Part shown: positions 4,515 to 29,659 of the stretch, piece after piece | Numbering within the stretch: position 1 is the first letter of the stretch | Layout: the number at the start of each line of letters is the position of its first letter | Origin: Bdellovibrio sp. | GTDB lineage: Bacteria; UBA10199; 2-02-FULL-44-16; DYJF01 | Direction of reading: 5' to 3' | DNA: 59,023 nucleotides | Assembly (NCBI GenBank): GCA_020723205.1 | Contig: DYJF01000005.1 | Location: 1 to 59,023, forward strand | Notes under the pieces: generated by a model | Database searches by the model: none | What the model was told of the DNA's origin: nothing | What the model saw: only the letters and a program-made list of their open reading frames with translations | Translations under genes and position numbers: made by a program

Positions 4515-4516
4515 GA

Positions 4517-8534: not shown

Positions 8535-8544
8535 AAGCGGACCG

Positions 8545-9888
8545 TCAGAATATTTTCTTCAGAAACGAGCGCAGGCCAAAAACGCTTTCAAGGTCGTTCC
8601 ATGTCACAAGGAGCATGAACGCCACGAGGAGGAAAAAGCCCGCCTGCGTGGCGTATTGCCGGACCTTCAAGCTCAAGGGTTTTCTCCTCACCGCCTCGAT
8701 ACCGAGGAAGAGGAGATGTCCTCCGTCAAGGACCGGTATCGGCATCACGTTGATGATGGCGAGCTGGAGACTCAAGAAAGCCAGAAAATACAAAAAGTTC
8801 GACAGCCCCGAAGCGGCAGCCGCCGCGGAGGCCTTAGCGATGATCACCGGCCCTCCAAGCACCTTGTATGAAAGGCCGCCCGTGAACAGGCGCTTCAGGA
8901 CGGAGAACGTAAGCCCCACGAGCTTAATGTTCTCCTTCGTGCCCTCTTTTATCGATCCCAGGAATCCGTAGCGCACAACGGTCATCGGCATCCCGCTTTG
9001 CCTGTCCTTGACGATGCCGATGAGCCAGCGCTTCGCCTCTTCGTTATATTCGGGCGTGACCTTGAGAACCAATGAATCGTCGCCGCGCTTCACTTTAAGC
9101 TCCGCCTCTTTCCCGCCGTTCTCGTTCACCTTCTGCGCGAGGTCCATCCAGTCGCTGATCGCCTTGCCGTTCACCGCCTCGACCCTGTCCCCCTTCATGA
9201 GCCCGGCAGATGCGGCCGGTCCGCCGGATGCGACGCCGTCTATCACCGCCTCGTTGCCGATAAAGAGCATCGGTTCGATGCCCGTGTAGCCGCCCTTCAT
9301 CTCCGGCATCTGCGATACTTCCATCAGCTGTTCGAACGCCTTCCCGCCCCGTTCGAGCGTAAGCATGAGCCGGCTGTTGGGCGAGAGAATGAATTTATTG
9401 AGCGCATCCTCCCAATCGGAAACTTCCTTGCCTTCAATCTTGAGTATCAGGTCGCCCTTCTCGATCCCCGCCTTTGCCGCAGGGGATTCGCCCCTGACTC
9501 CCATGACGACCGGCTGCTGATCCAGAAATACCGGCTGCGATCGGCCGAGCATGAAAACGATCGGCATCAAGACAAGGGCAAAGACAAAGTTCATGAGGGG
9601 GCCGAAAATGATTATCTTCGCACGCTGCCAGATCGTCTTATTCGAGAAGGAACGGGGGTCGTCGGAACCCTCTTGCGGGTCCTCGCCCAGCATCTTCACG
9701 TAACCGCCCAGCGGCAGCGCGGAGATGCGGTAATCGGTTTCTCCCTTCCTGAAACCGATCAGGCGGGGGCCGAAGCCCAGAGAGAACTCCTCCACCTTGA
9801 CGCCCTGCCGTTTCGCAAGGATGAAGTGGCCCAGTTCATGGACAAAGATGAGAAGGCCCAGTGCGATGAGGAAGTATAGGAATGTCAT
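8545..9888 (-). CDS. rseP: RIP metalloprotease RseP with two PDZ domains
   Basis: HELGH zinc motif, [12 protein letters not shown]; start reassigned to ATG 9888, overlapping the dxr stop. Confidence 0.95.
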
Positions 9889-11036
9889 TTTTCGATGAAT
9901 GTCCGCGCCGTTTCCCGCGCCCAGCCGTCGACGCCGAGTATCTCTTCCAACGTCGAACACGGCCCGGCGTCATGGGCCTGAATCGTTCTCTCCACGACTT
10001 TCGCTATCGAAACGAACGGGATCTTTCCGGCAAGGAACGCCGCGACCGCGATCTCGTTCGCCGCGTTCAGAACGACAGGGACCGAGCGCCCGGCCTTGAG
10101 CGCGTCGTAGGCGAGCTTGAGACACGGGAACTTCGCCATGTCCGGCGCCTCGAACGTGAGCTCACCGATCTTTTCAAGCTTCAACCCCGCGATGTTCGTC
10201 TCGACCCTCTGCGGATACGACAGCGCGTAGGCGATCGGCGCGCGCATGTCGGGCATACCCATCTGCGCCATCACGCAGCCGTCCCTATATTCCACCATGG
10301 AATGGACTATGCTCTGGGGATGTATGAGAACGTCTATCCTGTCGTGGCCGATGTCGAAGAGCCACCTGGCCTCTATCACCTCGAGCCCCTTGTTCATCAT
10401 TGTAGCCGAATCTATCGTGATCTTTGCGCCCATCGACCAGCGCGGATGCTTGAGGGCGTCCGATATCGTCACACGTTCAAGGTCCGCTGCGGAGTATTTG
10501 AGGAACGGGCCGCCCGACGCCGTGAGTATGATGCGCGAGACGTCGCCTCTGCGGTGACCCGTAAGCGACTGAAAGATCGCGCTGTGCTCGCTGTCGACGG
10601 GCAATATAGCCGCGTCGTGTTTCTTCGCAAGCTCGGTGACCAAAGCGCCGGCTATCACCATCGTTTCCTTATTGGCGAGCGCGATGTCCTTGCCGCGCCT
10701 TATCGCTTCGATCGTCGGTTTCAGGCCGGCCGCGCCGACGATAGCAGAGACCACCGTGTCGACGTCCGGCATAGAGGCAACCTCCGCAGCGCCTTCAATC
10801 CCCCACACGATCTCGGGCATCTTCCCCTTGAGAAGCGACCTGAGCTCTTTAGCGGAAGATTCGTCGCGGACCGAGACAAGTTTCGGGGAAAAGCGCTCTA
10901 TCTGCTTCGCCAAAAGGTTCACATCATGCCCCTCGGCGAGCCCGGCTATCTCGAACCTGTCCGGATGCAGCGCTATTATCTCGATCGCGCTCGTCCCTAT
11001 CGAACCCGTGCTTCCCAGTATGCTGATACGTTTCAT
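9885..11036 (-). CDS. dxr: 1-deoxy-D-xylulose-5-phosphate reductoisomerase
   Basis: [47 protein letters not shown]. Confidence 0.98.
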
Positions 11037-14765: not shown

Positions 14766-15662
14766 TTATTTCGTCTCCTTTTCCGCCGTCTTTTCTTCCA
14801 CCTTGACCTTTGCGAACTCCTTTATCTCCGCCTCGGAGGTCGCTTTTTCCACTTCGCCCTTCTTGCCCCCGACGTACGCGCGGCCCTTCGCTCCTATCTT
14901 TCTCTCACGGACGACCGGCCTCGCCTCGCCCCTTTCCTTGTCGACCTTCGCCTGCTGCTCGCGCAGCGCCGCTTCGCGCCTTAATGCGCCGTCGGCGCAA
15001 GCGTCGGCTATCATCTTCGTAAAGTACTCTATCGATCGAAGAGCGTCGTCGTTGCCGACTATGATGTAATCGATCCCGTCCGGATTTGCGTTCGTGTCCG
15101 CGAGCGCCACAACGGGGATCTTAAGCTTGATCGCCTCCAGTCGCGCGATGTTCTCTTCGGTGGGATCCACAAGAAAGACGGCTCCCGGCAGGCGCCCCAT
15201 CGTCCTGATGCCGCCGAGCGATTTTTCGTATTTCACGATCTGACGCTCTATCTGGAGCTGCTCCTTCTTCGGGAGCTTTTCCAGCTCGCCCTTGTCGCGG
15301 CGCGAGCAGAGGTTCTCAAGACGGTCGATGGACTGTTTGATGGTCTTGAAATTGGTGAGCATGCCGCCAAGCCAGCGGTTCGTAACGTAGTGCTGCTTTG
15401 CGCGCTGCGCCTCGGCGGTGATGACGTCCGCTGCCTGTTTCTTCGTTCCTACGAAAAGCACGGCCTGTCCCAAGGCGACCGTATCGGCTATGAACTTGCA
15501 GGCCTTGAGGGTCTGTTCAGCCGTCTGCGCCAGATCTATGATGTGAACCCCGTCGCGCTCCGTATAAATGTAAGAACGCATCTTGGGGTTCCATTTTCTC
15601 GTCTGATGTCCGAAATGGGCCCCTGCTTCCAGCATCTGCTTCACGTCAACATCAACCGGCAT
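14766..15662 (-). CDS. rpsB: 30S ribosomal protein S2
   Basis: LEAGAHFGHQTRKWNPKM, RWLGGMLTN, GNDDA. Confidence 0.98.
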   Translation of the reverse strand: MPVDVDVKQMLEAGAHFGHQTRKWNPKMRSYIYTERDGVHIIDLAQTAEQTLKACKFIADTVALGQAVLFVGTKKQAADVITAEAQRAKQHYVTNRWLGGMLTNFKTIKQSIDRLENLCSRRDKGELEKLPKKEQLQIERQIVKYEKSLGGIRTMGRLPGAVFLVDPTEENIARLEAIKLKIPVVALADTNANPDGIDYIIVGNDDALRSIEYFTKMIADACADGALRREAALREQQAKVDKERGEARPVVRERKIGAKGRAYVGGKKGEVEKATSEAEIKEFAKVKVEEKTAEKETK

Positions 15663-15786
15663 AAATATCTCCTCCTTTTAAATTTGACCATCCACCGCAA
15701 AGGGAAACCCTTTGTATTCACAGGGGAATCCCCGCGAAAAATGTTGCAGTCCCTTAGCATGGGGTTGTATATTATGCAATATGAAT

Positions 15787-15821
15787 TTAGACTCCAGACC
15801 CAAGACTCGAGACACGAGACA
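15787..15821. repeat. 7-bp tandem array (nnAGACn x5)
   Basis: ttagact ccagacc caagact cgagaca cgagaca. Confidence 0.7.
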
Positions 15822-15825
15822 TTTT

Positions 15826-16611
15826 ATGGAAACTATGAGAACATTTGGAGCCATAAAATCGCGTAACTTACCGACTTTGCTGGTTTTGCTGGCCATTTTT
15901 ATTTCTTCGGCATCTCCTGTCTTCGCCGGGGACTATGAACTTTATGTGAAGTCGGGACACAAGGCGACCGCATGGGACGGGATGGTAAAGGCGGGCTTCA
16001 CCTCCTTTGACAGCGGCGATTACCAAACAGGGCTGGTCTTTCTGAACAAGGCCTATGCGCTGGGCTGCCGCGACGGACTGCTTCTTTTCAAACTGGGGCT
16101 CTATTACGAGACGCAGAAGAACTACAAAGAGGCGGAAAGATATCTGAAGGAGGCGGAGCCGAATCTCAAAAAACAGTACGCCGACCACAGGGAAACCAAG
16201 AGCATACACGAGCATCTGGCGCGCATCTATTACCAGTCGGACAGATTCGACCGCGCCCTGCCAGAGATCGAAGAGGCGCTCAAGGTGACGCCTGACAACT
16301 TCATGCTCCTTTTCATGTCCGCGCAGATATACCGCCTGCAGAAGGACTATCCGCAGGCGATAGCCAACTTCGAAAAAGCGCTTGTCGTGCCGATGCCGCC
16401 CGGCCTCAAACCAGACCCCAAGAAGGCCGTTTATTCCGAGCTAATGACCCTCTACTACGAGCTGAGGGATTTTGCGAACTGCCTGAAATACGCCGAGATG
16501 GTCTTAACTGTCGCGCCGAACGACCGCGCCGCCTTATCCTACCGCCAGCAGATCCAGACGATGCAGTACAAGCAAAGAGAGCAGGAAGCGATAAAGAAGA
16601 TCGTACAATAA
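15826..16611 (+). CDS. Secreted TPR-repeat protein
   Basis: Signal peptide ending PVFA; several TPR-like repeats (LGLYY..QKNYKEAE.YL; LARIYY..DRFDRA..IEEALK.TP). Start uncertain (ATG 15826 or later). Confidence 0.8.
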   Translation: METMRTFGAIKSRNLPTLLVLLAIFISSASPVFAGDYELYVKSGHKATAWDGMVKAGFTSFDSGDYQTGLVFLNKAYALGCRDGLLLFKLGLYYETQKNYKEAERYLKEAEPNLKKQYADHRETKSIHEHLARIYYQSDRFDRALPEIEEALKVTPDNFMLLFMSAQIYRLQKDYPQAIANFEKALVVPMPPGLKPDPKKAVYSELMTLYYELRDFANCLKYAEMVLTVAPNDRAALSYRQQIQTMQYKQREQEAIKKIVQ

Positions 16612-16645
16612 TAAAACCCCGGGCTGCTTTCGCAAACCCGGGGCC
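16610..16645 (-). terminator. Intrinsic terminator, copy 1 of a perfect 36-bp direct repeat
   Basis: aataaaaccccgggctgctttcgcaaacccggggcc; GC stem followed by a U tract on the minus strand; identical to 18289-18324. Confidence 0.85.
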
Positions 16646-16664
16646 ATATCTAATTATATTTGCG

Positions 16665-18125
16665 TTAAGGCGTGCAGATTATTTGTGCAAAATATATGTC
16701 TCCTTCACCATCACGATCATCTGACCAACTTATGCCATATCCTCTGCCTGTCCAAACAAGTGACGGGGTTTTAGATGAAAATTCGTTATTCGTGACCCTA
16801 AGATTTGGTCCCACCAGCGTACCGCTCTCTGAAATACGACCAAAATATATCTCGTTGTTCCACGTTCCACCATCATGATTGTCATCCCAACTTATAGCGT
16901 ATTCACTACCTGTCCAAACAATTGAAGGTCCGTAAGCGTTTTCGAGATAAACTGGACTTGTTTCGGTTAAGCGAATTTCCGCAGCAAGAAGCGCCCCTGA
17001 ATCTGAAAGTCGAGCAAAATAGATTTCACTGTTTGTTCCATCATCTCTGTAATCGACCCAGCTCATTCCATATTCACTTCCCGTCCAAACAAGTGACCCA
17101 TCATTAGATAGGCTCGGAGAGTCTGTAATGCGCGTTACCACACCGGTAATTGACCCTGATGGCGACATTTTCCCAAAATACATTTCACCTGCGTAGGTCC
17201 AGCTCATGCCATACCCACTTTCTGCCCAAACAAGGGAGCTTTCTCCTCCTGCGCCCACTCTTACAACGGACCCGATCAATTCTCCTGATTCAGATATTTG
17301 TCGAAAATTTAGATCGGAAACGGTCCCAGCGTAGTTATCATCTGACCAACTTAGCCCATATTCTGTTCCCGTCCATTCTAGAGATGGAGGATGTGATATG
17401 AACAGCTCATTTGTGATGCGGACATCAGCTCCCAGCGGAACTCCAAGATCTGAAATCCGTTTAAAGTATATCTCATGAGCCAAGACCAGAGGCTCAGTAG
17501 GATCACGTACAGCGTCGCGATCATCCCTCCAAGCTACGCCATATTCATTGCCGTTCCAAACAAGTGAGGGATTCTCAGATACGCTTGGAGCATCTGTAAC
17601 TCGCATCTCTGTATCGTGAGGTGTACCGTCTTCAGAAATTCGTCTGAAATAGATTTCATCATTTCCGCCGTGTGTGTCTTCTTGCCACGCAACAGCATAC
17701 TCGCTCCCATTCCAAACCATTGAAGGATTCAACGAGTACGTAGCAGGAGAGTTGCTCACACGAATATCCGGCCCGACCTTGAAGCAACCACTCGGAGGGA
17801 TTTCAGAGTCCGGCATATCAGCTATATCGTCAAAACCATCAGTGGAATCTCCGTTCGAATCCTCCCATGTATCTTCAACCGGAGAACTTCCACCACATCC
17901 TGCGCCAAATAACATCAGCGGCTACCCTAAGACCGTGACAGGCAATCTGATCGGCTCCTCCGCATAATAGTCCCAAACATACTCTGCGTTCTCTAGAACG
18001 CTAGAACCCACCGATACTGCTGCATCTGCAACAGCGGTTAAAGCTTCTGTTACCGATCCAAGATTGTCGGGCAAATGATTTAAACTGATATCATATCCCA
18101 ATACTTCAAATCCTCCTGACAACAT
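16665..18125 (-). pseudogene. Seven-repeat beta-propeller (lipo)protein interrupted by one in-frame TAG at 17922-17924
   Basis: The 67-aa and 416-aa ORFs are in the same frame (...PVTVLG*PLMLFGAGCGG...). Seven PSLVWxGxEYGxxW..EIYF.RIS..G repeats. AGGAGG RBS precedes 18125. Region is visibly AT-richer than its flanks. Confidence 0.7.
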
Positions 18126-18172
18126 ATTTCCTCCTATTCCTATTGATTATTTTTCCTCTCTACCTCTACCGA

Positions 18173-18200
18173 TTCTTCGACTGTTTAAAAAATATGTTGC
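18173..18200 (-). promoter_or_regulatory. Shared motif copy 1: GCAAC-N15-TCGAAGAA
   Basis: Same spacing as copies at 23603, 28558 and 55072; upstream of the propeller gene. Confidence 0.65.
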
Positions 18201-18288
18201 TATCTTTATCTGACAATTTTAACAACGTGAATCAAATTCCGCGTCCAACTATAACCTATCGTTTTATTTAAGTATTTCTTACATCCAA

Positions 18289-18324
18289 AATAAAACCCCG
18301 GGCTGCTTTCGCAAACCCGGGGCC
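18289..18324 (-). terminator. Intrinsic terminator, copy 2 of the 36-bp direct repeat
   Basis: Identical to 16610-16645; downstream of the 1324-aa gene. Confidence 0.85.
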
Positions 18325-18347
18325 TCTGGGGGAGTCACTCTATTTTC

Positions 18348-18421
18348 GCCCCTCCTTTGTAAGGAGGGGTCAGGGGAGGTAGATATCTACCCCACCTTTC
18401 CTCCCCTTACAAAGGGGAGGA
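18348..18421. repeat. REP-like palindrome doublet (CCCCTCCTTnnnAAGGAGGGG family)
   Basis: cccctcctttgtaaggaggggtcaggggaggtaga...tctaccccacctttcctccccttacaaaggggagg; related copies at 30851 and 48368. Confidence 0.75.
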
Positions 18422-18431
18422 ATCATTTCCC

Positions 18432-21400
18432 TCACCTCTTTCTCAAGCAGCGGGATACCGCCCTGTTCACGATCAGGAGAAGTCCCATCAGGTAGATCAT
18501 GGAGGTCGGTGCCGCGTTCGTCCCTGCGACCGTCATGCAACCCTCGCGTCCGCTGGTGGCCGCGCCGATGTTGGCCGAGGGGTTGAAGAACCCGCCGTCG
18601 GTCATTTCATCGTAATCGGGTATGCCGTCGAAGTCGGAGTCGGGCAACTTGGGATCGGTCTCCATCCAACGCCCTTCCACGTCGCGATCGCGCACGCCGT
18701 TGCAGTTCAAGTCTTCGCCGATCCCGCCGATCTGGCCGTCATAGAGGCCGTCGCCGTCGGTGTCGGAGGAGAGCGCGTTCGTTTCGGAGCCGGCGTTGTA
18801 GTCGCCGTTGAGGTTCGAGTCTTCAAGACCGTCGGTGATGCAGTCGCCGTCGGTGTCGTCGTTAGTGGGATCCGTTCCGTAGCGGACCTCGAACCCGTCG
18901 TTCAAGGAGTCGCTGTCCGTATCTGCGGAGAGCGGGTTGGATTCGTGCGACGACTCATCATATATACCGTCGTGGTCGACGTCTTCCTCCCCGTCCTTGA
19001 GCCCGTCGTCATCCGTGTCCGGATTTCTGGGATCCGTGCCGAGGCGGCGCTCCTGAACGTCAGCCAGCCCGTCGCGGTCGGAATCGGCTCCGACCCCGCC
19101 CGCCCCGCAATTGGCCTCGTCGGAGTAGATCGCGTTGAGAGGACAGTAGTCATCCATATCGCCGACGCTGTCGCCGTCCGAGTCGGCCATACAGGGGTTC
19201 GAATCGTTATAAGTGACGACGCCGTTGTACTCGTCTTTGTCGGCAAGGCCGTCGTTGTCGGAGTCCGCCGACGTCGGATCGGAGATGAGGTCGATGCCGC
19301 CCGTGGAGAAGGCATCCAGTTGGGCTATGAGGTCGATGAAGTTGACCGGCACCGTATCGCCGACGATCAAGCTACCCTGAACCTCGATGCCGTCCTGCAG
19401 CGTGTCGCCGTCAGTGTCGGGATTCACCGGGTCCGTATCGAACGTCGCGATATCGGGGCAACCTTCCGCGCCGTGCGAGCCCACCGCGAGGGTGATCGTG
19501 CCGTCGTTGTTGCGGTCCTCGGCCTTGTCGCCCAAGGTGTCGTGATCCGTATCGGCATCCGACGGGTTGGTGGCGATCGGCCAGCCGAATATCTCGTCCT
19601 TATCGGCCACGCCGTCCGTGTCGGAATCCCTCGAAAGGCCATTCGACTCGGTGACGCCGATACCGGCCACGTTGATGACAATGTGGTCGTACTGGCCGTT
19701 CATGTCCTTGTCTTCCACGCAGTCGCGGACAGAGTCGCCGTCGCGATCGAGGAAACAGGAGATTATCTTCTGCGTTTGATAGACGAGCACCGGATCGCAG
19801 CTGTATGCCGTGCGGCCTTCCACGAACTTATCGGATGCGCCGTAGGTCACGGGGCAGACGTCGCTGTCGATCTCGCCCCTCCAGCCGTCCTTCGCGCCGT
19901 CGCCGTCGGTGTCGTCGCTCGCGGCGTTCAGCTTGGTCGTCGTGTCGATGCTGCACGTGCTGTTCGGCGCCTCGACGCAGTTCGGGATACCGTCATGGTC
20001 CAAGTCACCGAAGCAGATCGTGTTGATCTCTTCCCATGACCTGTACTGCGGTCTTCCGTCGGTGCCCATTATGAGGTGCCCTTCGGCATCGGTCTTATAG
20101 TATGCAAGGATGTATTCGCCTTCCTTCTTGAGCGAGTGAGGCGCACGCTCTCCCAGCTCTTCGAAGTCAACGTAGTCGGGATTGACGCCGTAGAGAAGGA
20201 TCGCAGGGCTGCAGGGCAGCGCCGCGCAGGTGTTCGTATCGTCGGCAACCGTCGGGCAGTGGTCCGGATCCGCTACAGTGGCGCATCCGGTCGTTCCGCC
20301 GACAGGGTCAACGGAGCCGTCGCCGTCGCAGAATGCGTCGCCGTCCGTATTGACGTTGAGCATATCCGTTTCGAGGTTATCGGTGTCGTATCTGCCGTTG
20401 AAGTTGGCAGGCGACGTCAGCGCGCCGTGGCGGCAGCGCAGTATCTCAAGGTAAGCGCCTTCCCTCGTGGTGTCGCTGTCGGGCAGGACGTCTCCCCACG
20501 CCTGGGGCTCTTCGATTATCTCGCCGGAGGAATTGCGCTTCACATACCAGTAGCCGTAGCTGATGCCCACGTCGCTTACGCCGAGCGTGCACGTCATCAC
20601 GGTCCGCACTCCGCTCGAATCTCTGGTCGTTATCGGATGCTCGTCCTCAAGACCGCGTCCGAACGTATAGAGCGAGCCCTGTGAAACGCCGCCGCCCAAG
20701 GACCTCAAGAGATCGTCATAGTAGAGGTTTCTGTCTTCCTGATAGTCCTTTCGGCCGTCGTTGTCGGAGTCCTTATCGAGCGGGTTGGGATAGTTGTCGT
20801 TATCCTTGTCGGCCTCCGCTCTGTTCACAACCGTCGCGTCGTCGCAAGGCAGGACCGCGTACACGCCGGGGGAAGTTTCCTTCTTCCAGCTGCCGGACGC
20901 GTCCTTACACATCACTTCCTTGCCGCCACTCATCACTGTGCCGTCGGGTATACCGTCGCGATCGCTGTCGGGATGCTGCCAGCACGTCTCATTGGGATCG
21001 CATACGCAGTTTAAGTTCACGTCCTCGTCGTCGTCGAAGAGTCCGTCGTAATCGCTGTCGAAGCCCGGGGCGGGTGCCCTGCGACCGTCGAAGCTGTACA
21101 GACCGTTGTTCGTCTGGCAGGCCGAAACACTCTGGAAGCCGTTCGCCATGCCGCCGTCACCCGGGCCGGACCCGCCTCCTGGGCCTACCGAGCCCAAGTT
21201 TCTGTCCACGCACCATCCTTCAGTGCCGCGAACGCTTGCGGGATCGACCTGCGCGATGCGCAAATACCTCGGCTGTCCCATCCTTCCGCCGGCCCCTTCG
21301 GGCACGAGGGCGACCTCTTCCAGCGCGCCCTTCTTGAAGTAGGCGGAGATGTAGCCCGCGAGTGACGCGCGCGTTCCGAGACCCACGTTCCTCACGTCGT

Positions 21401-22391
21401 TCCACGCGCCGATGTATCCGTAGAATCCGTCGCGGCCGTAGATCTGGATGCGGGTCGCAACGTTGGATGCCGTCTTTTCGCAAAGATCCGAGCCGTCGTC
21501 CTCGATGACCCAGCCGCGCACCCATATGTAGTTGTCGGTGCTCAATCCCGTGGGGTCAGGAAGTTCGATCATCTGCTTCATTACTATCTTCACCTTGGAC
21601 GCGTCGTTCTTGAAATATTTGCTCACCGAAGGCAGAGAGATGGAGAACTTGTTGCCGGAGGTCGGCACAAAGAGACCGTGGTCGTCCGTCGCTCCAACAG
21701 GCGCGTCCATGGGCTCAAGGAACGCGTTCGAGAGTGAATCGGCGGAGATGCCCTGAAACACAATGCCGTAGCCGGAGACACCCCTCACCTCTGAATCCGC
21801 GGATATCTTGCTGCCGGTGGATTCCGCTCCGAAGACAAAACCGTCGGAGCCGCCGGAGGTGATATGGACGTTCTTCATCTCGACATTGGCGTCGTTCATA
21901 CAGATCGCCGCCTTGCCGGACGGAACGTTCGTGATCTCTATGTTCTCGAGCTTCACGTAGGGCGCGTTGATGGTGATGAGGCATTCCTCGTCGCCGCCTT
22001 CGAAGTTGTAGGCGTCGATCCTGACGATGCCGCCTGTCGCTTCCGAGTCACCGATTATGGTGAAGACCTGCGACATGCCGCCGCCCCAGTTGATGACCAT
22101 CGGCTTCCTTATGGCGATGGTATCTCCGTCGGGCTTCAGGATTATCGTCTTCAGGCATGCCCCTTCGCTGTGTCCGCCGCCCAAGTTGGCATGGAAGATC
22201 GCGCGCTTCAATGAAAGCGCCGTCGGATCGGAGGTGGTCATCTGCCAGAGATGGCTTGTGACCGTGCACTCCTCGCGCGACATGTTGCCGCTGTCATAGG
22301 GCAGATCGGCGAAGAGGACTTTGGGCACGGCCAGCACTACGATCAGCGCCGCCATTCCCATCATCACGTTAATTATCCTTTTCGAACTCAT
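18432..22391 (-). CDS. Large surface protein: beta-helix-like N-terminus, many thrombospondin-3-like Asp-rich repeats, C-terminal Cys-TM-basic sorting signal
   Basis: Signal peptide; repeated DxDxDGxxDxxEDxNxNG..ETxP; ends EGCMTVAG...MIYLMGLLLIVNRAVSRCLRKR; start likely ATG 22391. Confidence 0.85.
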   Translation of the reverse strand: MSSKRIINVMMGMAALIVVLAVPKVLFADLPYDSGNMSREECTVTSHLWQMTTSDPTALSLKRAIFHANLGGGHSEGACLKTIILKPDGDTIAIRKPMVINWGGGMSQVFTIIGDSEATGGIVRIDAYNFEGGDEECLITINAPYVKLENIEITNVPSGKAAICMNDANVEMKNVHITSGGSDGFVFGAESTGSKISADSEVRGVSGYGIVFQGISADSLSNAFLEPMDAPVGATDDHGLFVPTSGNKFSISLPSVSKYFKNDASKVKIVMKQMIELPDPTGLSTDNYIWVRGWVIEDDGSDLCEKTASNVATRIQIYGRDGFYGYIGAWNDVRNVGLGTRASLAGYISAYFKKGALEEVALVPEGAGGRMGQPRYLRIAQVDPASVRGTEGWCVDRNLGSVGPGGGSGPGDGGMANGFQSVSACQTNNGLYSFDGRRAPAPGFDSDYDGLFDDDEDVNLNCVCDPNETCWQHPDSDRDGIPDGTVMSGGKEVMCKDASGSWKKETSPGVYAVLPCDDATVVNRAEADKDNDNYPNPLDKDSDNDGRKDYQEDRNLYYDDLLRSLGGGVSQGSLYTFGRGLEDEHPITTRDSSGVRTVMTCTLGVSDVGISYGYWYVKRNSSGEIIEEPQAWGDVLPDSDTTREGAYLEILRCRHGALTSPANFNGRYDTDNLETDMLNVNTDGDAFCDGDGSVDPVGGTTGCATVADPDHCPTVADDTNTCAALPCSPAILLYGVNPDYVDFEELGERAPHSLKKEGEYILAYYKTDAEGHLIMGTDGRPQYRSWEEINTICFGDLDHDGIPNCVEAPNSTCSIDTTTKLNAASDDTDGDGAKDGWRGEIDSDVCPVTYGASDKFVEGRTAYSCDPVLVYQTQKIISCFLDRDGDSVRDCVEDKDMNGQYDHIVINVAGIGVTESNGLSRDSDTDGVADKDEIFGWPIATNPSDADTDHDTLGDKAEDRNNDGTITLAVGSHGAEGCPDIATFDTDPVNPDTDGDTLQDGIEVQGSLIVGDTVPVNFIDLIAQLDAFSTGGIDLISDPTSADSDNDGLADKDEYNGVVTYNDSNPCMADSDGDSVGDMDDYCPLNAIYSDEANCGAGGVGADSDRDGLADVQERRLGTDPRNPDTDDDGLKDGEEDVDHDGIYDESSHESNPLSADTDSDSLNDGFEVRYGTDPTNDDTDGDCITDGLEDSNLNGDYNAGSETNALSSDTDGDGLYDGQIGGIGEDLNCNGVRDRDVEGRWMETDPKLPDSDFDGIPDYDEMTDGGFFNPSANIGAATSGREGCMTVAGTNAAPTSMIYLMGLLLIVNRAVSRCLRKR

Positions 22392-22433
22392 TGGGTACCT
22401 CCCCAAAAATTACCCCCCAGGGTAATCGTTATC

Positions 22434-23519
22434 TTACAGTCCAAACAACATGCCGAAACCAAGGTTGAGAACGTTGGGCGAGAACGCGATGTCCTGCCTC
22501 GTCTGATTGTCTATCGACGTGCGCTCGTAGTAACCGATGCTCGTGATGTCGCGCATATACTCGAGGTCGAGGTGCAGCCCGACCTTCTCGGAGACCTGGA
22601 AACCCACACGCAGGCCGGCTACGAACTGCATGAGCCCGTGACCGAAATCCATGATGGGGCCGGACATCGGCGTGATGATACCGGAGTCGCCGCCTACGCC
22701 CCAGCGATAGCCGCCGCCGAAGCCCAAATACGGCATGAGGGATACCTTCTTCTCCGCCGAGACAACTATATCGACGCCGAGCAGGGCGTGGACCGTGAAG
22801 TCAATGAGGTCCGCGTTCCTCGGTTCGGTCGTTCCCTCGACGTTGGTCATCTCCGCCATTCTGGAATAGATCAGGTTGGCCATGAGGCCTATCACGAAGC
22901 TGTCGCCGCGGCTGTCGATGCCGAAACCATATTGCCAGCCGCCCGACAATCCGCCCTGGAAGGACATGCAGCTGTGGGCCGCGTTGATGTCGGGATCTTC
23001 GCCGGAATATTCGGAGGGCCAGTCGCCGCCTTCCACGCACGTATTATCGCCGAAGCTCAAGAAGTTCAATTTGAGCATAAGCGGAAAATGATGGCCTGCT
23101 GTTGAAAATTCCGGGGCTTCTTCCTCTTCCGTGCCTTCGGCTGGCGCTGCCGCCGTGGCCGGAGCTGCGGCAGGGGCCGCTGCGGGCGCTGCCGCCGGAG
23201 CGGATGTTCCCGGTGCCGGTGGTTCGTTACCCGCGATGACCGCCGTGGCTACCGCCTCTGATTCCGCAGCGCTGTATCCAAGCGCGCCCCAGTGATTCAC
23301 GTCGGACATAAGAGTCTGCAACCCTTGCGGCCAAGTGGAATAGGCCGGCAAAGCCGGGGCCGGTTCCGGCACGACGCAGATTCCGTCGGTCACCGTCGGA
23401 CAAACCGTCTGACAGAGATCTTCCGACTGATTGCTCGGACAATAATCCATTCCGATGCCCGCGTTTAACAATTGCCCTGCCGGAGTGTTGTTGCTGACTA
23501 TCTGACCGCCTGAAAACAT
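22434..23519 (-). CDS. Cys-rich N-domain, Ala/Pro linker and C-terminal outer-membrane-type beta-barrel; no classical signal peptide
   Basis: APAAAPAAAP linker; amphipathic strands (LMPYLGFGGGY, FVAGLRVGFQV, VLNLGFGMLF); AGGAGG RBS. Confidence 0.7.
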   Translation of the reverse strand: MFSGGQIVSNNTPAGQLLNAGIGMDYCPSNQSEDLCQTVCPTVTDGICVVPEPAPALPAYSTWPQGLQTLMSDVNHWGALGYSAAESEAVATAVIAGNEPPAPGTSAPAAAPAAAPAAAPATAAAPAEGTEEEEAPEFSTAGHHFPLMLKLNFLSFGDNTCVEGGDWPSEYSGEDPDINAAHSCMSFQGGLSGGWQYGFGIDSRGDSFVIGLMANLIYSRMAEMTNVEGTTEPRNADLIDFTVHALLGVDIVVSAEKKVSLMPYLGFGGGYRWGVGGDSGIITPMSGPIMDFGHGLMQFVAGLRVGFQVSEKVGLHLDLEYMRDITSIGYYERTSIDNQTRQDIAFSPNVLNLGFGMLFGL

Positions 23520-23602
23520 AATTACCTCCTAAAAATTTTTCCCCCGAAGCGTTTTTACTCCCCTAAAACATTACTAAACAAGGATTCTTTGCCTCCATAC
23601 CT

Positions 23603-23630
23603 ATTATCGGCGGCCTTTAAAAAAAGTTGC
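23603..23630 (-). promoter_or_regulatory. Shared motif copy 2: GCAAC-N15-CCGATAAT
   Basis: Upstream of the 361-aa/1324-aa unit. Confidence 0.75.
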
Positions 23631-23640
23631 GTAATTTTAT

Positions 23641-23674
23641 AAGACCTGAGACCTGAGACCTGAGACCGTAGACC
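23641..23674. repeat. 7-bp tandem array (TGAGACC)n
   Basis: aagacc tgagacc tgagacc tgagacc gtagacc. Confidence 0.8.
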
Positions 23675-23852
23675 AAATGCGCTTGGATATCAGCTGGTTG
23701 CATGAGAGCGAGTGTACACGTTTTTTAGCGCAAAATGGCCTTTCTGTGGTGGGTACGACGCGTTAATTATGACGATATTCGTTTCGAACCTGGCACCTTT
23801 TTCAGTGAAGATAATTTGTTTATATATCCATATGTTAAGGCCTATCCTTAAA

Positions 23853-24824
23853 TTAGAAGTTCATGAGTCTGAAGCCCATGTCCAGTGAAAAAAGCAGAGA
23901 ATGTTGTGGAAGCGGCGTGTCAGTGACCGTGGCGGAGTATGCCAAGCCGAGTCCCATGGTGAACCCTTCGATCGGCCATATCATGAGCTTGAGCCCGGAA
24001 CCCAACCCGATCTGGACCTCTGCACCCATGTTATCCGTCCAGTTACCAGGAGATACTTGAACCTCTTCATCCGCCCAGAATGTTCCAATATTGAAGTCGG
24101 CAAAGAGCCTCACTCCGAACGTCGCCGAAATGACGAAATAATAGCCCGCGTCTGCGAATCCCATGGCGCCGTAGACCGTGCCCGCTTCCCTCCCTGTTTC
24201 TCCCAGATTCACACCTTGAGATGTCGTGGGCATAAAGATGACGCGGCCTCCGAAAAGTCCGTAAAAACCGTTCGCCGCCTGCCCTCCCAGCGCGAGATCG
24301 ACGGTCCACGGCTGCTCGAAGGTGTCATAGGATAACATCCCTATCTTCGCCGCAAACTCGAGCCAGAGGCCGGCAGGCGTGTTGAACAGGTCCTCGTCTA
24401 TCGCTATCTCGGGCCTGCACGCCTCCGGGTCCCGGGGGGGCGTGTATTCGTGGAGCGTCATTATGCGCTCGTAGGCGTCCCGCACTTCGTCGGCGCAATA
24501 TCCGAAGCGATATACGAAGGAAAAATCCTGCGTCTCGGGGTCAGTGCTCGCGAGAATGGAGCGAAGCTCCTCTCCAAGCGCATCGAATGAGCCGGGAAGA
24601 CGCGACATCCTCACCTCCGGCGGAGATGAGGGATCGCATACGGGGTCCTCCAAATGCTTGCAGGGGCAGCCGCAATACTCCGATACTGCGCCGCCAAGGG
24701 CGATGGCCATCACCTCGCACTCATCCCTCACTTCGCGCTCGCCGCCCTCCGGCACAGGGAAGTTCGGCCCGCAGGTCATGCCTACGAGCACTCTGATCGC
24801 GGGATTGCTGTAATCAATCGGCAT
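23853..24824 (-). CDS. Cys-rich N-domain plus C-terminal outer-membrane-type beta-barrel; no classical signal peptide
   Basis: Eight Cys in the N-terminal half; amphipathic strands ending LLFSLDMGFRLMNF. Confidence 0.7.
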   Translation of the reverse strand: MPIDYSNPAIRVLVGMTCGPNFPVPEGGEREVRDECEVMAIALGGAVSEYCGCPCKHLEDPVCDPSSPPEVRMSRLPGSFDALGEELRSILASTDPETQDFSFVYRFGYCADEVRDAYERIMTLHEYTPPRDPEACRPEIAIDEDLFNTPAGLWLEFAAKIGMLSYDTFEQPWTVDLALGGQAANGFYGLFGGRVIFMPTTSQGVNLGETGREAGTVYGAMGFADAGYYFVISATFGVRLFADFNIGTFWADEEVQVSPGNWTDNMGAEVQIGLGSGLKLMIWPIEGFTMGLGLAYSATVTDTPLPQHSLLFSLDMGFRLMNF

Positions 24825-24833
24825 TCGTGTCCC

Positions 24834-26273
24834 TTATTTTTCCTCGACGACAGTGACGGCCACGCGGTTGTCGTCTATGAGCGCGAAGTTCAGTCGTATA
24901 TGATAATAATGCACGAGGCACGGCAGGGAGACTTTTTTCATTATCTCCTGCGCCATCCATTGCGCGATGTTGCCGTACGTTACGCGCTCCTCCTGTGTAG
25001 GAGCCGCGTACGTGATGCGCATGTCGGTGACGCGCCTCTCGTCGTTCGCGAACAGCTCGAAATCGGCCTCGAAGGATGCGGGGAAATCGAATTCCCCGGC
25101 TCTAAGCTCCGCTATGAGCCGCGTATAGACGTCTCCCGCGGCGGTCATGATCGCCGCTTCAAGCTCGTCCCTGTCGCGCGGCGGGGATGAATCCTCATAT
25201 TCGGCCGTCGCCTCGAACACGTCCACGATCTCGGAGGGGTCAGGGGAGCCGCAGAGCTCGGCGGCATCCGGCACGGGTATTATGTCGCGCATCTCGGGGA
25301 TAAGAAGTCCAAGACCGCGCAGTGTCTGCGGCGCCACGTTCTGCGCCGCTTCCTGCGCGCCTCTCACGGCGTCGCGGGCGCGCATCTGTGCGTCGGCCAC
25401 GAAGGAGAGCGAATCCTCGATAGAGGAGACGCCGGAAGCGCCCTGCACCTCGCAGATGCGCATGACCTGCCCCAAGCCCATCGCCAGCCAGTTCGCGTAG
25501 GCGTTCATCGCGAGCCACGCGTTCCTTATGGCCTTTATCGCCTCCTGCTCCGCCGCTTCGTCTGGGGTAACGAAGATGACGATACCGTCGGCCGGAGCGG
25601 TTATCTCTTCCGTCATGATCTCGATCGCCGGGTTCAAGTCCTCCCGCGGTTCGCCCGCCGCGGCGCTCTCGGCCACGCGCTGATCGAGGTAATTCGAAAG
25701 GGTCGCTATCTGAACTTCGGTGAGAGGGAGATCGCCCAGCATGCGCTTCAAGTCGCGCGCGCTTCGCTCGCTTATCTGCGTGTTCTCAAATTCCTGCACG
25801 AGTATGCCCAAGAGCCGGCGCTGCAACCCTTCGGTCAGGGCCGCGGCCACTATCAAAAGTTCCTGCACTTCGGGATTCGCCGGCATTTCGGAGAGCCGCC
25901 TCGTCAGGCGGTCAAGCGTTCTTAGGCCCTCCACCGCCTTGTTGGCAAAACGGCTGCGCCTGCTCCTCGATATCTCCTCCTCTTCGGGATTTGGCATCGC
26001 ATCCAGATCGGCCTGAACCTCGTTTATCTCCCCCCTGTATCTCGCGATGCGCGGCCCCAGACGCTCCATATCGTTCTGCGCCCGCTGCATGCGCTCTATG
26101 GCCTCCTGCGCGCGGGCAAGCGCGGCTTCACGCTGGGCCTGAAGCAGGCGTTCGGTCGCCTCCTGCGCACGTGCCAGGGCCGCTTCGCGCTGCGCGTCGG
26201 ACGCGTCCTGCCGCTCTTCAGTTGAAGGAATCTCCGGCGGCGACTGCTTCGCCAGTCTTACTTCGAGTCCCAT
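24834..26273 (-). CDS. Helical protein with 19-aa AQREAALARAQEA repeats and a possible TonB/TolA-C-like C-terminal domain
   Basis: Repeats shared with the 748-aa neighbour; C-terminal helix-strand-strand-helix-strand pattern. Confidence 0.65.
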   Translation of the reverse strand: MGLEVRLAKQSPPEIPSTEERQDASDAQREAALARAQEATERLLQAQREAALARAQEAIERMQRAQNDMERLGPRIARYRGEINEVQADLDAMPNPEEEEISRSRRSRFANKAVEGLRTLDRLTRRLSEMPANPEVQELLIVAAALTEGLQRRLLGILVQEFENTQISERSARDLKRMLGDLPLTEVQIATLSNYLDQRVAESAAAGEPREDLNPAIEIMTEEITAPADGIVIFVTPDEAAEQEAIKAIRNAWLAMNAYANWLAMGLGQVMRICEVQGASGVSSIEDSLSFVADAQMRARDAVRGAQEAAQNVAPQTLRGLGLLIPEMRDIIPVPDAAELCGSPDPSEIVDVFEATAEYEDSSPPRDRDELEAAIMTAAGDVYTRLIAELRAGEFDFPASFEADFELFANDERRVTDMRITYAAPTQEERVTYGNIAQWMAQEIMKKVSLPCLVHYYHIRLNFALIDDNRVAVTVVEEK

Positions 26274-26297
26274 AACCCTGCCCCTTATTCTTAACCG

Positions 26298-28529
26298 TCA
26301 TTCGCTGACGGTCTGAAAGCTCATCCCGCCGCCGCCCGCTCTTATTACGATGGGGATCTCTCTTATGGTGCGGCCGTCTCTTCCGTTCTCCGCCCTGATA
26401 TACCTGCAAAATGCCGAAGCGATCTTATAGTACCAGTTGCGCATCCCCGGGTCTTCCATCAGGTCCTCGCCGCTGGTGCGCACTCCGTCCCGAACCCTGT
26501 CCGTGGCGGAGATCGTGACCTCCGAGACGTAGCCCTCATCATCAAGCTCCACGGTCACCTGCGCGATGAGCACCATCGTCGGCGGAAAGCTCCACTGATT
26601 GAGAACGGATGTGATCTTCTCGGTGAACGCGTCCCTCGTCGCGTCTATCTGCTGCGATATCTCGCCGTTGCAATCGCAACTCACCGTCATGCGCCTTCCG
26701 TGGACCACCGGCTGGCCGATGTGGGTTGCTTGAGAGGTGGAAAGCTGTTGCACGTCCGGTATGCGCGCCTCTTCGCCGGTCGGTATCGTAGGCAAGGTGA
26801 GCCCGCTGCGTTGCTGCACGTTCAAGGCGGCCATTGCCGCCGCGGCCGCGGCTATCTTGGCCTCGGCGTTCTGTCTCGCGGCTGTCGCCTGTTCGATCGC
26901 CTCCACGGCATTTTCCCTAAGATCGCGGAACGCGCGCCTTCCGATGCACTGACCGCTCGCGGCGGCCGCCACTTCCTGTGCGGCTTCGCGCGCCTTCAGG
27001 GCCTTCGCAAGGAACTGCTCGACAGCGGATTGCGCTTCGTTGACTGCCTCTTGCGCCGCGCCCTGCACGCGTCTTAGCTCCGCGGCCGCCTGAAGCTCCG
27101 CCGAGCGCGTATTCAGGATCCTCTCAATCTCGCCCAAGACGTAGATGAGCGAACCCCTGCGGCTCTCGTCGAGCTTCGACTCGTTCACCTTATCGCGCAG
27201 ACTTGCTATGTCGCGCAGGCGGTCGCGGATATCTCCCTCGTCGGATATCGTCTCCGCCTCCTGCTGCATCGCGACCACTTTCTCCATGACGAGATTGAAT
27301 ATGCGGTTGCACAGCAAATCCTGTATGGACGTCGCCTGCGCTACGAGGCCGCCCGCCGCTGCGTCCGCGCCGTTCTCTTCAATGAATTGCGTGACCCTCT
27401 CCAGATTGGATATCGCCCTGTTCAGATTCATACCCTCTATATCTTCGGAGGAATTCTGGCCTTCTATCCTTGTAAATGCGCGCACCTGCGCCCTTGAGGG
27501 CTCCGGCGGCGAAACAGTCGCCGACGCTTCAACGGGTGGAGGAGCGGTCTCAAAGCCGGGCGGGACGCGGATCGGCTGTTCGATAAAGGGAACCGGCGGC
27601 GGATTTACGGGTGGTGTTACCGGGGGCGTCGGAGGCGTCGTTTCGCAAGTGGACATCCCCTCCTCCAGCGCTATCCTCGCAACTTCCAGCTGCGTCTGCC
27701 GCTGCGATAATATAACTCGGAGCGCCTGTTTCTGCGTATCGCTGAGTTCGGACCCGTCAATGGCGGTGTTCAGTTCGACAAGCGTTCTCAAGTGTCTGTC
27801 GATCGCCCTTATCGTCCCCGCGGCTCGGGCGACTTCGCAGTACTCCTGATGGTACGGGACCGCCTCTATCTCCCCCTGGAACAACGAGACGAGCCGGGTT
27901 TCAAGCCGCGACTTCATGGCCTCTACTGCGATCCTCATCTCGTGGGTTTCAGCGGCCTCCGGCACATCTCTCAAGAATGAATTGACGTCTCTGAGGCGAC
28001 GGGTCGCGGTCTGCCTGTCCATAGCGGCGACACGTTCCTCCGTGTTGCGGCCCATGAGTTCGTCGTACTTTTCCGTCCAGCGCCTAAGCTGCCTTGCGGA
28101 TATCTCGACCGCGGGTGCCGGCGGCGCGGCCGGCGTTTGCGCGTCCTGCATTCTGCGTATCGCTTCCTGCGCCCTTGCTATCGCCGCTTCCGCCTGCGCC
28201 TCCTGCATTCTGCGTATCGCTTCCTGCGCGCGGGCGAGCGCCGCTTCGCGCTGGGCTTCCTGCATGCGGCGCACGGCTTCCTGCGCTCGGGCTACCGGGT
28301 CCTGTCCCCCGCCCTGCGACTGCTTCGCGGCATCCGCGGCGGATTTCGCGAAAAGAAGTGCCACAGACTGCTCCGGCTGGGTTTCACAGACCGGAAGGTC
28401 GAACAGCGACGGTGCGACGGAGTATGAATCCTGCGAGTGCGTGCCGGATGTCTCGAAAGACGGAGAACCGCACAACCCCTCGTCCTCTGGAGTGGCACCG
28501 AACCCGCCCACGACCGGATTAACAGCCAT
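26298..28529 (-). CDS. Helical protein with 19-aa repeats, Pro-rich linker and a possible TonB/TolA-C-like C-terminal domain
   Basis: EAQREAALARAQEAIRRMQ repeats; TPPTPPVTPPVNPPP; WSFPP...VTVELDDEGYVSEVTI; start likely ATG 28529. Confidence 0.7.
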   Translation of the reverse strand: MAVNPVVGGFGATPEDEGLCGSPSFETSGTHSQDSYSVAPSLFDLPVCETQPEQSVALLFAKSAADAAKQSQGGGQDPVARAQEAVRRMQEAQREAALARAQEAIRRMQEAQAEAAIARAQEAIRRMQDAQTPAAPPAPAVEISARQLRRWTEKYDELMGRNTEERVAAMDRQTATRRLRDVNSFLRDVPEAAETHEMRIAVEAMKSRLETRLVSLFQGEIEAVPYHQEYCEVARAAGTIRAIDRHLRTLVELNTAIDGSELSDTQKQALRVILSQRQTQLEVARIALEEGMSTCETTPPTPPVTPPVNPPPVPFIEQPIRVPPGFETAPPPVEASATVSPPEPSRAQVRAFTRIEGQNSSEDIEGMNLNRAISNLERVTQFIEENGADAAAGGLVAQATSIQDLLCNRIFNLVMEKVVAMQQEAETISDEGDIRDRLRDIASLRDKVNESKLDESRRGSLIYVLGEIERILNTRSAELQAAAELRRVQGAAQEAVNEAQSAVEQFLAKALKAREAAQEVAAAASGQCIGRRAFRDLRENAVEAIEQATAARQNAEAKIAAAAAAMAALNVQQRSGLTLPTIPTGEEARIPDVQQLSTSQATHIGQPVVHGRRMTVSCDCNGEISQQIDATRDAFTEKITSVLNQWSFPPTMVLIAQVTVELDDEGYVSEVTISATDRVRDGVRTSGEDLMEDPGMRNWYYKIASAFCRYIRAENGRDGRTIREIPIVIRAGGGGMSFQTVSE

Positions 28530-28557
28530 TAGTTGCTCCCACACTTTCCCCCATCTA

Positions 28558-28585
28558 ATTATCGGCTATCTCTCAAAAAAGTTGC
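28558..28585 (-). promoter_or_regulatory. Shared motif copy 3: GCAAC-N15-CCGATAAT
   Basis: Upstream of the 748/479/323-aa operon. Confidence 0.75.
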
Positions 28586-28592
28586 TAGATTA

Positions 28593-28632
28593 CGGTGTCC
28601 GGCACAAAACGGGCATTTTGTGTCGGACACCG
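28593..28632. terminator. Long hairpin ending the acyl-CoA operon
   Basis: cggtgtccggcacaaaa...ttttgtgtcggacaccg inverted repeat. Confidence 0.6.
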
Positions 28633-28645
28633 CTTTTATGCGGCG

Positions 28646-29101
28646 CTAGATGGGGCGAAAATGGAGGATATCGTTGATGCTGCCCGTGCGTTTCGAGGGC
28701 TCCGCGAAGATCGCCTCGACCTTCATCCCGATTTTGACCGCGGAGGGCTCCACTCCGGAGAGACGGTGGATAACGCCGCCGTCGGTGCCGACGATCCTAA
28801 CGCACGCGACGATCTCCGGCCTTGAAAGCCGCTTGCCCTCAAGCGACTCGTGAAGGACCGTGTAGGTCTCGACGACGCCCTTGGTGCCGACGTCGAAATA
28901 ATCGCCCAGTTCCGCAAGACAGCGCTCGCAGTAGATGCGCGGCGGAACATAGGTAACGTTGCACTTGCCGCACTTCGTCGCCACGAACGTTCCTTTTTCC
29001 TTCACCGCGCGGAAGAACTTCTCGCCCGCAAGACCGTACGTGTACAGATAATGGACCGGTATCTCCCCGTCCCACTTCTTTGTCTTGATCTCACTTGCCA
29101 T
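28646..29101 (-). CDS. DUF35 Zn-ribbon/OB-fold protein
   Basis: KCGKC..YVPPRIYCERC, GVVETYTV, KIGMKV. Confidence 0.9.
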   Translation of the reverse strand: MASEIKTKKWDGEIPVHYLYTYGLAGEKFFRAVKEKGTFVATKCGKCNVTYVPPRIYCERCLAELGDYFDVGTKGVVETYTVLHESLEGKRLSRPEIVACVRIVGTDGGVIHRLSGVEPSAVKIGMKVEAIFAEPSKRTGSINDILHFRPI

Positions 29102-29140
29102 TTAATCCTCCTGCCTTTTTTTCTTCGCCCCTGCGGCAAA

Positions 29141-29659
29141 TTATCTCAAAGGTTTGAAATACCTTATATCCGTGATCGCGCCGGCACGCTCGTTCGCCGT
29201 CTTCCAGACCGCCTTCACCTTCATTCCTATCTTTATCTCCTTGGGGTCCGCCTCTCCAAGAACATGCAGGATGCCCATGCCCTCCGAGGCGCCGTCTATT
29301 TCGATGACGGCCGGCAGGTGCGGAAGGGCGCCCTGCGGCAGGCGGGACGCGTCCCAGTTGACGTGGCAGATCGAGAACGTGTTCACCTTTCCGGTGTCCT
29401 CGAGCTCCACCCAGTCGCCAGTGTCCTTGAAGCATAGTTCGCAGAACATCCTGGGCGGTATCATGATGCGGTTGCATCCGCCGCACTTCTTGCCGATGAG
29501 TTTTCCCTCTTTGAGCCCGTCCAAGTACCGCCCCACCGCCTGACCAGTATCCCACGAATATTGCAGCTTGGGGTTGCAGGGCATGGTGAGGACCGACCCG
29601 TCCTTGACGGCCTGCGATTTAAGACCCGTTCCCTTGAGTTCGAATTTTTCGAGAACCAT
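29141..29659 (-). CDS. DUF35 Zn-ribbon/OB-fold protein
   Basis: KCGGC..IPPRMFCELC, GKVNTFS, KIGMKVKAVW. Confidence 0.9.
   Translation of the reverse strand: MVLEKFELKGTGLKSQAVKDGSVLTMPCNPKLQYSWDTGQAVGRYLDGLKEGKLIGKKCGGCNRIMIPPRMFCELCFKDTGDWVELEDTGKVNTFSICHVNWDASRLPQGALPHLPAVIEIDGASEGMGILHVLGEADPKEIKIGMKVKAVWKTANERAGAITDIRYFKPLR

Follow-up and report, generated by a model that had tools for sequence, protein, structure and literature searches.

How proteins apparently built for the cell envelope might leave the cytoplasm without a Sec signal peptide is the question raised by a gene island at positions 16,665 to 28,585 of a contig assigned to Bdellovibrio sp. (GenBank assembly GCA_020723205.1, contig DYJF01000005.1; GTDB UBA10199, 2-02-FULL-44-16, DYJF01). 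The window analysed here, 59,023 nucleotides (nt), is that entire contig (C36), one of 85 in a metagenome-assembled genome (MAG) of 1.75 Mb that is 83% complete. The original prediction, made from the DNA letters alone, had flagged four island proteins of 748, 479, 323 and 361 amino acids (aa) as envelope-type proteins without signal peptides, encoded beside a Sec-exported adhesin. That anomaly is real and conserved. The reading we favour, at a probability of roughly 40%, is that the island is a sigma-controlled surface or contact module whose signal-less proteins would leave the cytoplasm through a secretion system of type III (T3SS) that lacks a secretin.

Signal-less proteins of a genus-specific island

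The island genes lie on the minus strand between a thiolase/DUF35 operon and tsf-rpsB, and they form two operons. The first runs from promoter P1 (28559..28585) through the 748-aa open reading frame (ORF; 26298..28544), which is 743 aa long when counted from the ATG at 28529, to the 479-aa ORF (24834..26273) and the 323-aa gene (23853..24824). A gap of 333 nt separates the 323-aa ORF from the 361-aa ORF (22434..23519), which begins with MFSGG and follows promoter P2 (23604..23630); the gene for the 1324-aa adhesin (18432..22406) lies 27 nt beyond the 361-aa gene and is co-transcribed with it.

Scoring of N-termini found no hydrophobic N-terminal segment in the 748-, 479-, 323- or 361-aa proteins, and scored the adhesin and a neighbouring TPR protein as having ordinary signal peptides. 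Alternative starts could in principle have restored signal peptides to the four, but each ORF has an in-frame stop 3 to 8 codons 5' of its start, so that a longer start is impossible. The island proteins of a sister species (G001) have equally polar N-termini and starts that likewise cannot be extended, and a signal peptide is absent from all eight aligned members of the 323 family. Each family also retains an N-terminal motif of its own (MAVNP/MSFDP, MG[LF] and M(P/Q)I(D/N)Y), and residues 1-82 of the 743-aa protein are polar and disordered in its structural model, with a predicted local distance difference test score (pLDDT) below 50. Because G001 keeps both the gene order and the polar N-termini, the genes are real and the absence of signals is conserved. 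On these points, and on the Sec export of the adhesin, the original prediction held up.

In G001 the genes stand in the same order, encoding proteins of 877, 463, 344 and 411 aa followed by the adhesin, and the thiolase/DUF35 genes again lie alongside. Identity between the two genomes is 26% for the two long proteins and 54% for the 323-aa protein. When the 361-aa protein was compared by BLASTP with the protein at the same position in G001, only the first residues, MFSGG, were alike. Beyond the sister species the families are rare. The 323 family comprises eight proteins in 5.8 billion clusters, and the 748 family has seven matches in 1.84 billion representatives, with itself and its 479-aa paralogue counted. 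The 323 family occurs in two of the 22 genomes of the order, both of one genus; scans of genome contigs recovered it from the sister genome only, and scans of metagenome contigs did not recover it. A word-based search with the C-terminal part of the 479-aa protein returned only the query itself, and no syntenic locus with the thiolase/DUF35 neighbour was found in the other genomes of the family. Other studies, of the subsurface, groundwater and wetlands, have also yielded contigs of related strains, with the adhesin gene, the 361-aa gene and portions of the genes for the 479- and 748-aa proteins. The island is genus-specific and fast-evolving, and all that is known of it comes from a single genus of subsurface bacteria, which are uncultured.

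Predicted folds of the island proteins

The 323-aa protein provides the clearest picture of what is encoded. Its family has eight invariant cysteines within the first 136 residues, including the motif YCGCPCxH, and in its AlphaFold2 model (mean pLDDT 84.5) a helical N-terminal domain (residues 1-150) precedes eight long strands at 152-322. The top Foldseek matches were FapF, the transmembrane domain of OmpA, OmpW, OmpX/Ail and NspA (E 1e-6 to 1e-4, TMt at most 0.68). Six of the eight strands are predicted to present a single clearly hydrophobic face, and the C-terminal residue is F or Y in seven of the eight family members (F in this protein). The C-terminal part is therefore predicted with confidence to be an eight-stranded outer-membrane beta-barrel of the OmpA/NspA type. 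Pfam returned no OMP_b-brl match to it at E<=0.1, and querying the ESM Atlas with the N-terminal domain returned no usable match.

A similar layout can be seen by eye in the 361-aa protein, where a Cys-rich N-terminal segment and an acidic Ala/Pro/Glu-rich linker precede a Gly- and aromatic-rich half with about eight amphipathic, strand-like segments. From this pattern the C-terminal half may be a barrel too. An hhalign comparison detected no relation between this protein and the 323 family, and a word-based homologue search found no match, not even the protein itself, probably as its candidates were filled by low-complexity words. The beta-barrels that had been predicted for the island are thus confidently modelled for one protein and a matter of sequence pattern for the other, and the predicted Cys-rich segments are present in both.

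Contig C71 of G001 (L012) carries a second pair of this kind, encoding a signal-less protein (7946-9013) and a Sec-exported adhesin-like protein (9100-10572) in convergent orientation. The signal-less protein has a Cys-rich N-terminal domain and a barrel-like C-terminal half, and shares 42% identity with the 361-aa protein over residues 21-102 of the latter; its partner ends in a Gly-Cys-rich segment, a transmembrane helix and a basic tail.

The two longest signal-less proteins, which belong to no known family, are largely helical. In the model of the 743-aa protein (pLDDT 73) the disordered N-terminus gives way to helical repeats of the AQREAALARAQEA type, then to two helical bundles split by a Pro-rich linker, a long helical hairpin and an alpha/beta domain at about 600-730. 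The 479-aa protein is a paralogue of the N-terminal repeat region of this protein (BLASTP E 1e-13) and has a separate alpha/beta-like domain at its C-terminus. Foldseek found no match to the 748 model below 1e-3, but its searches were filled by the helical parts and barely covered the C-terminal domain. TonB-C-like domains had also been proposed for these proteins, and they were not confirmed: neither Pfam nor NCBIfam gave a TonB-C match at E<=0.1, and the ESM Atlas returned only sub-threshold TonB_C/TolA leads for the 479-aa protein (0.79-0.80). A complex predicted between the C-terminal part of the 479-aa protein and the N-terminal domain of the 323-aa protein scored 0.02 against a mark of 0.32. 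For the four orphan proteins as a group, Pfam, NCBIfam, PHROGs and PADLOC returned nothing meaningful, and profile searches of both families against PDB sequences gave nothing below E 0.06.

The adhesin is of a more familiar kind, with a Sec signal peptide, a beta-helix-like N-terminal part and Asp-rich, calcium-binding repeats of the TSP3 type. Its tail (18432-18560; L047 2320-2450) consists of Gly-Cys, a transmembrane helix of some 20 hydrophobic residues and RKR, and is almost identical across the two species. The tail resembles a sorting signal of the MYXO-CTERM kind; NCBIfam gave no match at E<=0.1.

Sigma-28-type promoters and a type III secretion gene set

Both operons are preceded by the same promoter, GCAACTTTTTT-N8/9-GCCGATAAT, which stands upstream of both first genes, at a distance of 30 nt from the start of the 743-aa gene and of about 85 nt from that of the 361-aa gene. 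P1 reads GCAACTTTTTT-N-GCCGATAA. The -10 element GCCGATAA is the FliA/sigma-28 consensus, and the two sites are promoters of the FliA/sigma-28 type. Two matches were observed in the window where 0.01 were expected, and both are conserved at the same positions in G001 (two matches, 0.08 expected). Some 30 sites across the genome carry this promoter, most of them in front of orphan genes. The signal-less proteins encoded behind such promoters are more polar over their first 25 residues (median 0.40, n=15) than the background (0.28, n=1078); the comparison rests on crude gene calls (one-sided p=0.013) and lends weak support to T3-like N-termini. Between P2 and the start of the 361-aa gene, a leader of about 85 nt (23520-23603) is conserved in G001 and could be a regulatory 5' untranslated region; an Rfam search over 15500-29500 gave no match to it or to any other part of the interval.

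The original prediction had proposed a search of the genome for flagellar/T3SS, Tad and Agl-Glt genes, and T3SS genes were found. Across the order, the T3SS gate genes are nearly universal (FHIPEP in 20/21 genomes, FliP and FlhB in 21/21), and flagellin is found in one genome of the 21 (G014), which has second copies of all three gate genes. Judged by gene content, the order is not flagellated yet holds one non-flagellar T3SS gene set. In the present genome its core is scattered, with the main cluster, SctU and SctV on different contigs. The cluster occupies about 9,000-23,500 of contig C61 (L029, L045) and encodes an SctJ-type lipoprotein, a FliA/WhiG-like sigma factor, FliG_C-like, SctN, YscO/FliJ-like and FliK/SctP-like proteins, SctR, SctS and SctT, together with a weakly LcrH/SycD-like TPR protein and several small unknown proteins; SctU (FlhB) is encoded at C30 59868-60887 and a fragment of SctV/FHIPEP at C60 14-1069. 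SctV and SctR exceed their NCBIfam cut-offs. By eye, two of the small proteins on C61 stand out, one for a C-terminal heptad region like that of a needle or filament, the other for a translocator-like hydrophobic segment.

The SctV of G001 likewise scores above the SctV cut-off, and its gene comes immediately downstream of secA, with both on one strand (L021, C31 11465-16324). A gene for an FHA/YscD-like, TPR and PEGA protein is found about 4.5 kb from it, and the same contig carries two head-to-head pairs of small genes of the 23S-rRNA-IVS family (PF05635) at 4077-4842 and 7085-7839.

No SctC secretin was found in the present genome, where both secretins are of the GspD type (in a complete type II secretion cluster) or the PilQ type, and neither a type VI secretion sheath nor TadE was found in this 83% of a genome. 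The organism is diderm and encodes BamA-family proteins. The T3SS is the only Sec-independent export machine found in the genome.

The sigma factor may link this gene set to the promoters. In 16 of the 21 genomes a sigma gene with FliA/WhiG as its best match shares a contig with FliP/SctR and is no more than about 7-10 kb from it, and in the remaining five the two are on different contigs. P1 and P2 are most likely read by this factor. The order-wide T3SS set, the embedded sigma gene and the sigma-28-type promoters lend circumstantial support to the original suggestion that the island proteins are substrates of a Sec-independent pathway; export itself we infer.

Routes out of the cytoplasm and known systems

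The favoured reading would work as follows. The FliA-like sigma factor embedded in the T3SS cluster would drive a regulon of fast-evolving genes, of which the island would be one genus-specific part. The four signal-less proteins would exit the cytoplasm through the T3SS, with their polar, disordered N-termini serving as signals, and the two putative barrel proteins would insert into an outer membrane. This might be the cell's own, reached after periplasmic release from the secretin-less apparatus and BAM-assisted folding, or the barrels might insert into the membrane of a contacted cell. Disulfide bonds would form in the Cys-rich domains once these are outside the cytoplasm. The 748- and 479-aa proteins, long and helical, could act as extended scaffolds or tethers, and the Sec-exported TSP3 adhesin could provide calcium-dependent attachment.

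Several observations weigh against this proposal. No T3SS chaperone gene was found within the island. None of the sequencing runs listed is recorded as RNA. We know of no beta-barrel outer-membrane protein that is a T3SS substrate, and a literature search at the level of titles and abstracts found none described as T3SS cargo. The T3SS is order-wide and the island is restricted to one genus, so the island can be at most an accessory to it. Five of the 20 called genes behind the promoters have signal-peptide-like N-termini, so the regulon is not purely signal-less, and a few of the promoter matches, such as one before an SMC-like gene, look like chance. The sigma factor scores 130.8 bits against a FliA_WhiG (TIGR02479) cut-off of 189.6, and we therefore call it FliA-like rather than a certified FliA/WhiG member. 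Other secretion systems may also have been missed because the genome is 83% complete. Our estimate is no higher than stated above because the sigma-promoter link is inferred, because of the signal peptides in a quarter of the called regulon and because we found no precedent for barrel cargo.

Outer-membrane beta-barrels are thought to enter the periplasm through Sec. Conserved signal-less barrels behind promoters tied to a T3SS sigma factor would, if exported, break that rule, and a T3SS without secretin, like the one found at Myxococcus prey contacts, would have its first concrete cargo candidates. The analysis also offers a candidate sigma factor for the promoter type that precedes the orphan genes.

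A bolder version seems to us quite improbable. In it, the order's secretin-less, flagellum-derived T3SS would give envelope proteins another way through the inner membrane, taking signal-less OmpA-type barrels with Cys-rich domains, and perhaps proteins that join an M-[FLW]-S-G-G leader to an internal lipobox, to the periplasm or onto a contacted cell, with transcription coupled through the sigma factor. Were this second route real, it would mean either T3SS-dependent biogenesis of outer-membrane proteins or a new class of effectors, barrels delivered to the outer membrane of another cell.

The alternative that we rate highest, though we think it somewhat unlikely, is export by a route other than the T3SS, such as an undescribed pathway or non-classical targeting, for instance by an M-[FLW]-S-G-G tag, a type I system, vesicles or lysis. 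The motif M[FLW]SGG heads six ORFs of at least 100 aa in the genome (on contigs C9, C33, C41, which has two, and C71, and at 23519 in the window), compared with none to two for each of 11 other orderings of the residues; an interrupted leader at 18125 is a seventh site. The sigma-28-type -10 element CCGATA lies within 130 nt upstream in four of these seven, and the proteins are otherwise unrelated. Three of them join a leader of 30-85 aa to a hydrophobic stretch and a Gly-Cys lipobox, an arrangement that, like the N-terminal motif kept by each island family, would suit a dedicated route. The short motif is testable as an export tag. On the other side, no machinery was found that could serve such a route, MxSGG is missing from the 748-, 479- and 323-aa proteins, RTX-type or C-terminal type I features were not seen, and the one Sec-independent export machine found in the genome is the T3SS itself.

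The interrupted leader belongs to a propeller gene at the 3' end of the island (16665..18125, minus strand), which the original prediction had counted among the signal-less proteins as a full-length propeller. Its MLSGG start and internal lipobox are as described, but an in-frame TAG interrupts it and it is a strain-specific insert. A 67-aa leader ORF (18125-17925) ends at the TAG (17924-17922), within a signal-like hydrophobic stretch, and the reading frame resumes at 17915-16665 with the lipobox LFGAGC and a 416-aa propeller of eight repeats. The gene is present in one of five genomes, this one, and is absent from G001; its G+C of 0.49 is lower than that of the genome, and it has no cover in metagenome runs X2-X4, so that contigs resolve its TAG site in the source-like run only. 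It probably represents a recent acquisition, now broken, of the class that combines an MLSGG leader with an internal lipobox. An origin of the island as a mobile element or phage was considered and rejected: there are no PHROG matches, G+C is genome-like except in the propeller, and integrase-family genes come no closer than about 23 kb (Pfam Phage_integrase, 51217-52104). Just 3' of the adhesin, at 18349-18422, lies a short G/C-rich repeat of palindromic form. In four of four metagenome runs it shows many joints and loose ends, and its summed contig depth is about 7-88 against about 5 in the flanks, which marks it as a multi-copy, REP-like element common to many contigs.

It is unlikely, in our estimate, that the signal-less proteins are cytoplasmic or lie on the membrane's inner face. 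They would then serve a stage-specific programme under sigma-28-type promoters, much like the late genes of chlamydiae, their cysteines would bind metal, and the eight-stranded barrel would be a soluble one.

A divergent gliding or adhesion machine of the Agl-Glt type, as the original prediction had proposed, is very improbable. The adhesin does share TSP3-type repeats with CglD (E 2.1e-37), the likeness being one of Asp-rich repeats in a large Sec-exported adhesin, and the island combines outer-membrane-type barrels with a neighbouring TPR protein. The match to the CglD model (NF033765), however, reaches 128.5 bits where the cut-off is 400, and covers only the repeat region, residues 990-1268; Pfam gave no TonB_C match, Pfam and NCBIfam found no Glt or Agl partner families in the island, and homologues of the island proteins are limited to a handful of metagenome sequences. 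The TPR gene adjoins the island and its product has the signal peptide noted above, but it is not a member, because relatives in the family that have no island also keep it next to rpsB. Its identity in four relatives is 70, 54, 53 and 38%, and in G001 it lies between rpsB and the adhesin.

Artefact, in the form of miscalled genes, pseudogenes or misassembly, has a next to negligible chance of explaining the locus: the TAG in the propeller gene and the fragmentation of the MAG would fit it, but it is largely refuted by conservation, with four ORFs intact and syntenic in G001 behind conserved promoters, related strains in the contigs of other studies, and a high-confidence model for the 323 family.

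The T3SS-linked module that we favour can be set against several known systems. Among outer-membrane barrels (the OmpA transmembrane domain, OmpX/Ail, OmpW, NspA, OprF-N and Dot/Icm porin III were compared), the 323-aa protein stands apart in having no signal peptide and in carrying a Cys-rich domain of about 150 aa before the barrel. With the FliA class-3 flagellar regulon and the substrates of the flagellar T3SS the module shares the -10 element GCCGATAA, a FliA/WhiG-like sigma factor, and products with polar N-termini that lack Sec signals. It differs from that regulon in that flagellin is confined to the single genome mentioned and in that the products are barrels and long helical proteins rather than axial components. 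Enterobacterial FliA promoters have a -35 element of the TAAA type, whereas the -35 here is GCAACTT.

The chlamydial late-gene programme also pairs sigma-28 with Cys-rich envelope proteins in a non-motile lineage, and its OmcA, OmcB and MOMP have signal peptides. The resemblance lies in the sigma-28-type factor, the Cys-rich envelope-type proteins and the scattered T3SS loci, a dispersal reported for Chlamydiales by Abby and Rocha (2012; PMC3459982). Unlike in Chlamydiae, metabolism here is of a free-living type, and evidence for a host was not found.

The closest parallels are with the myxobacteria. The same study describes the non-flagellar T3SS (NF-T3SS) variants of Myxococcales as early-diverging and without some core genes, with secretins recruited to NF-T3SS later (PMC3459982). 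In Myxococcus, a T3SS without secretin or needle (T3SS*) is recruited to prey contacts and works with the Kil Tad pilus; the passages of that report consulted here name no substrates (PMC12075869). The present system differs in that TadE was not found and in having a FliA-like sigma factor within the cluster, with a putative regulon of orphan genes. As in Myxococcus T3SS* and the Myxococcales NF-T3SS, the gene set is non-flagellar and no dedicated secretin was found. Delta-proteobacterium-like features of the lineage are a type II secretion system of the GspC_delta type, PEGA Ser/Thr kinases and the CglD-like TSP3 adhesin, and, as for T3SS*, a role in cell contact is suspected.

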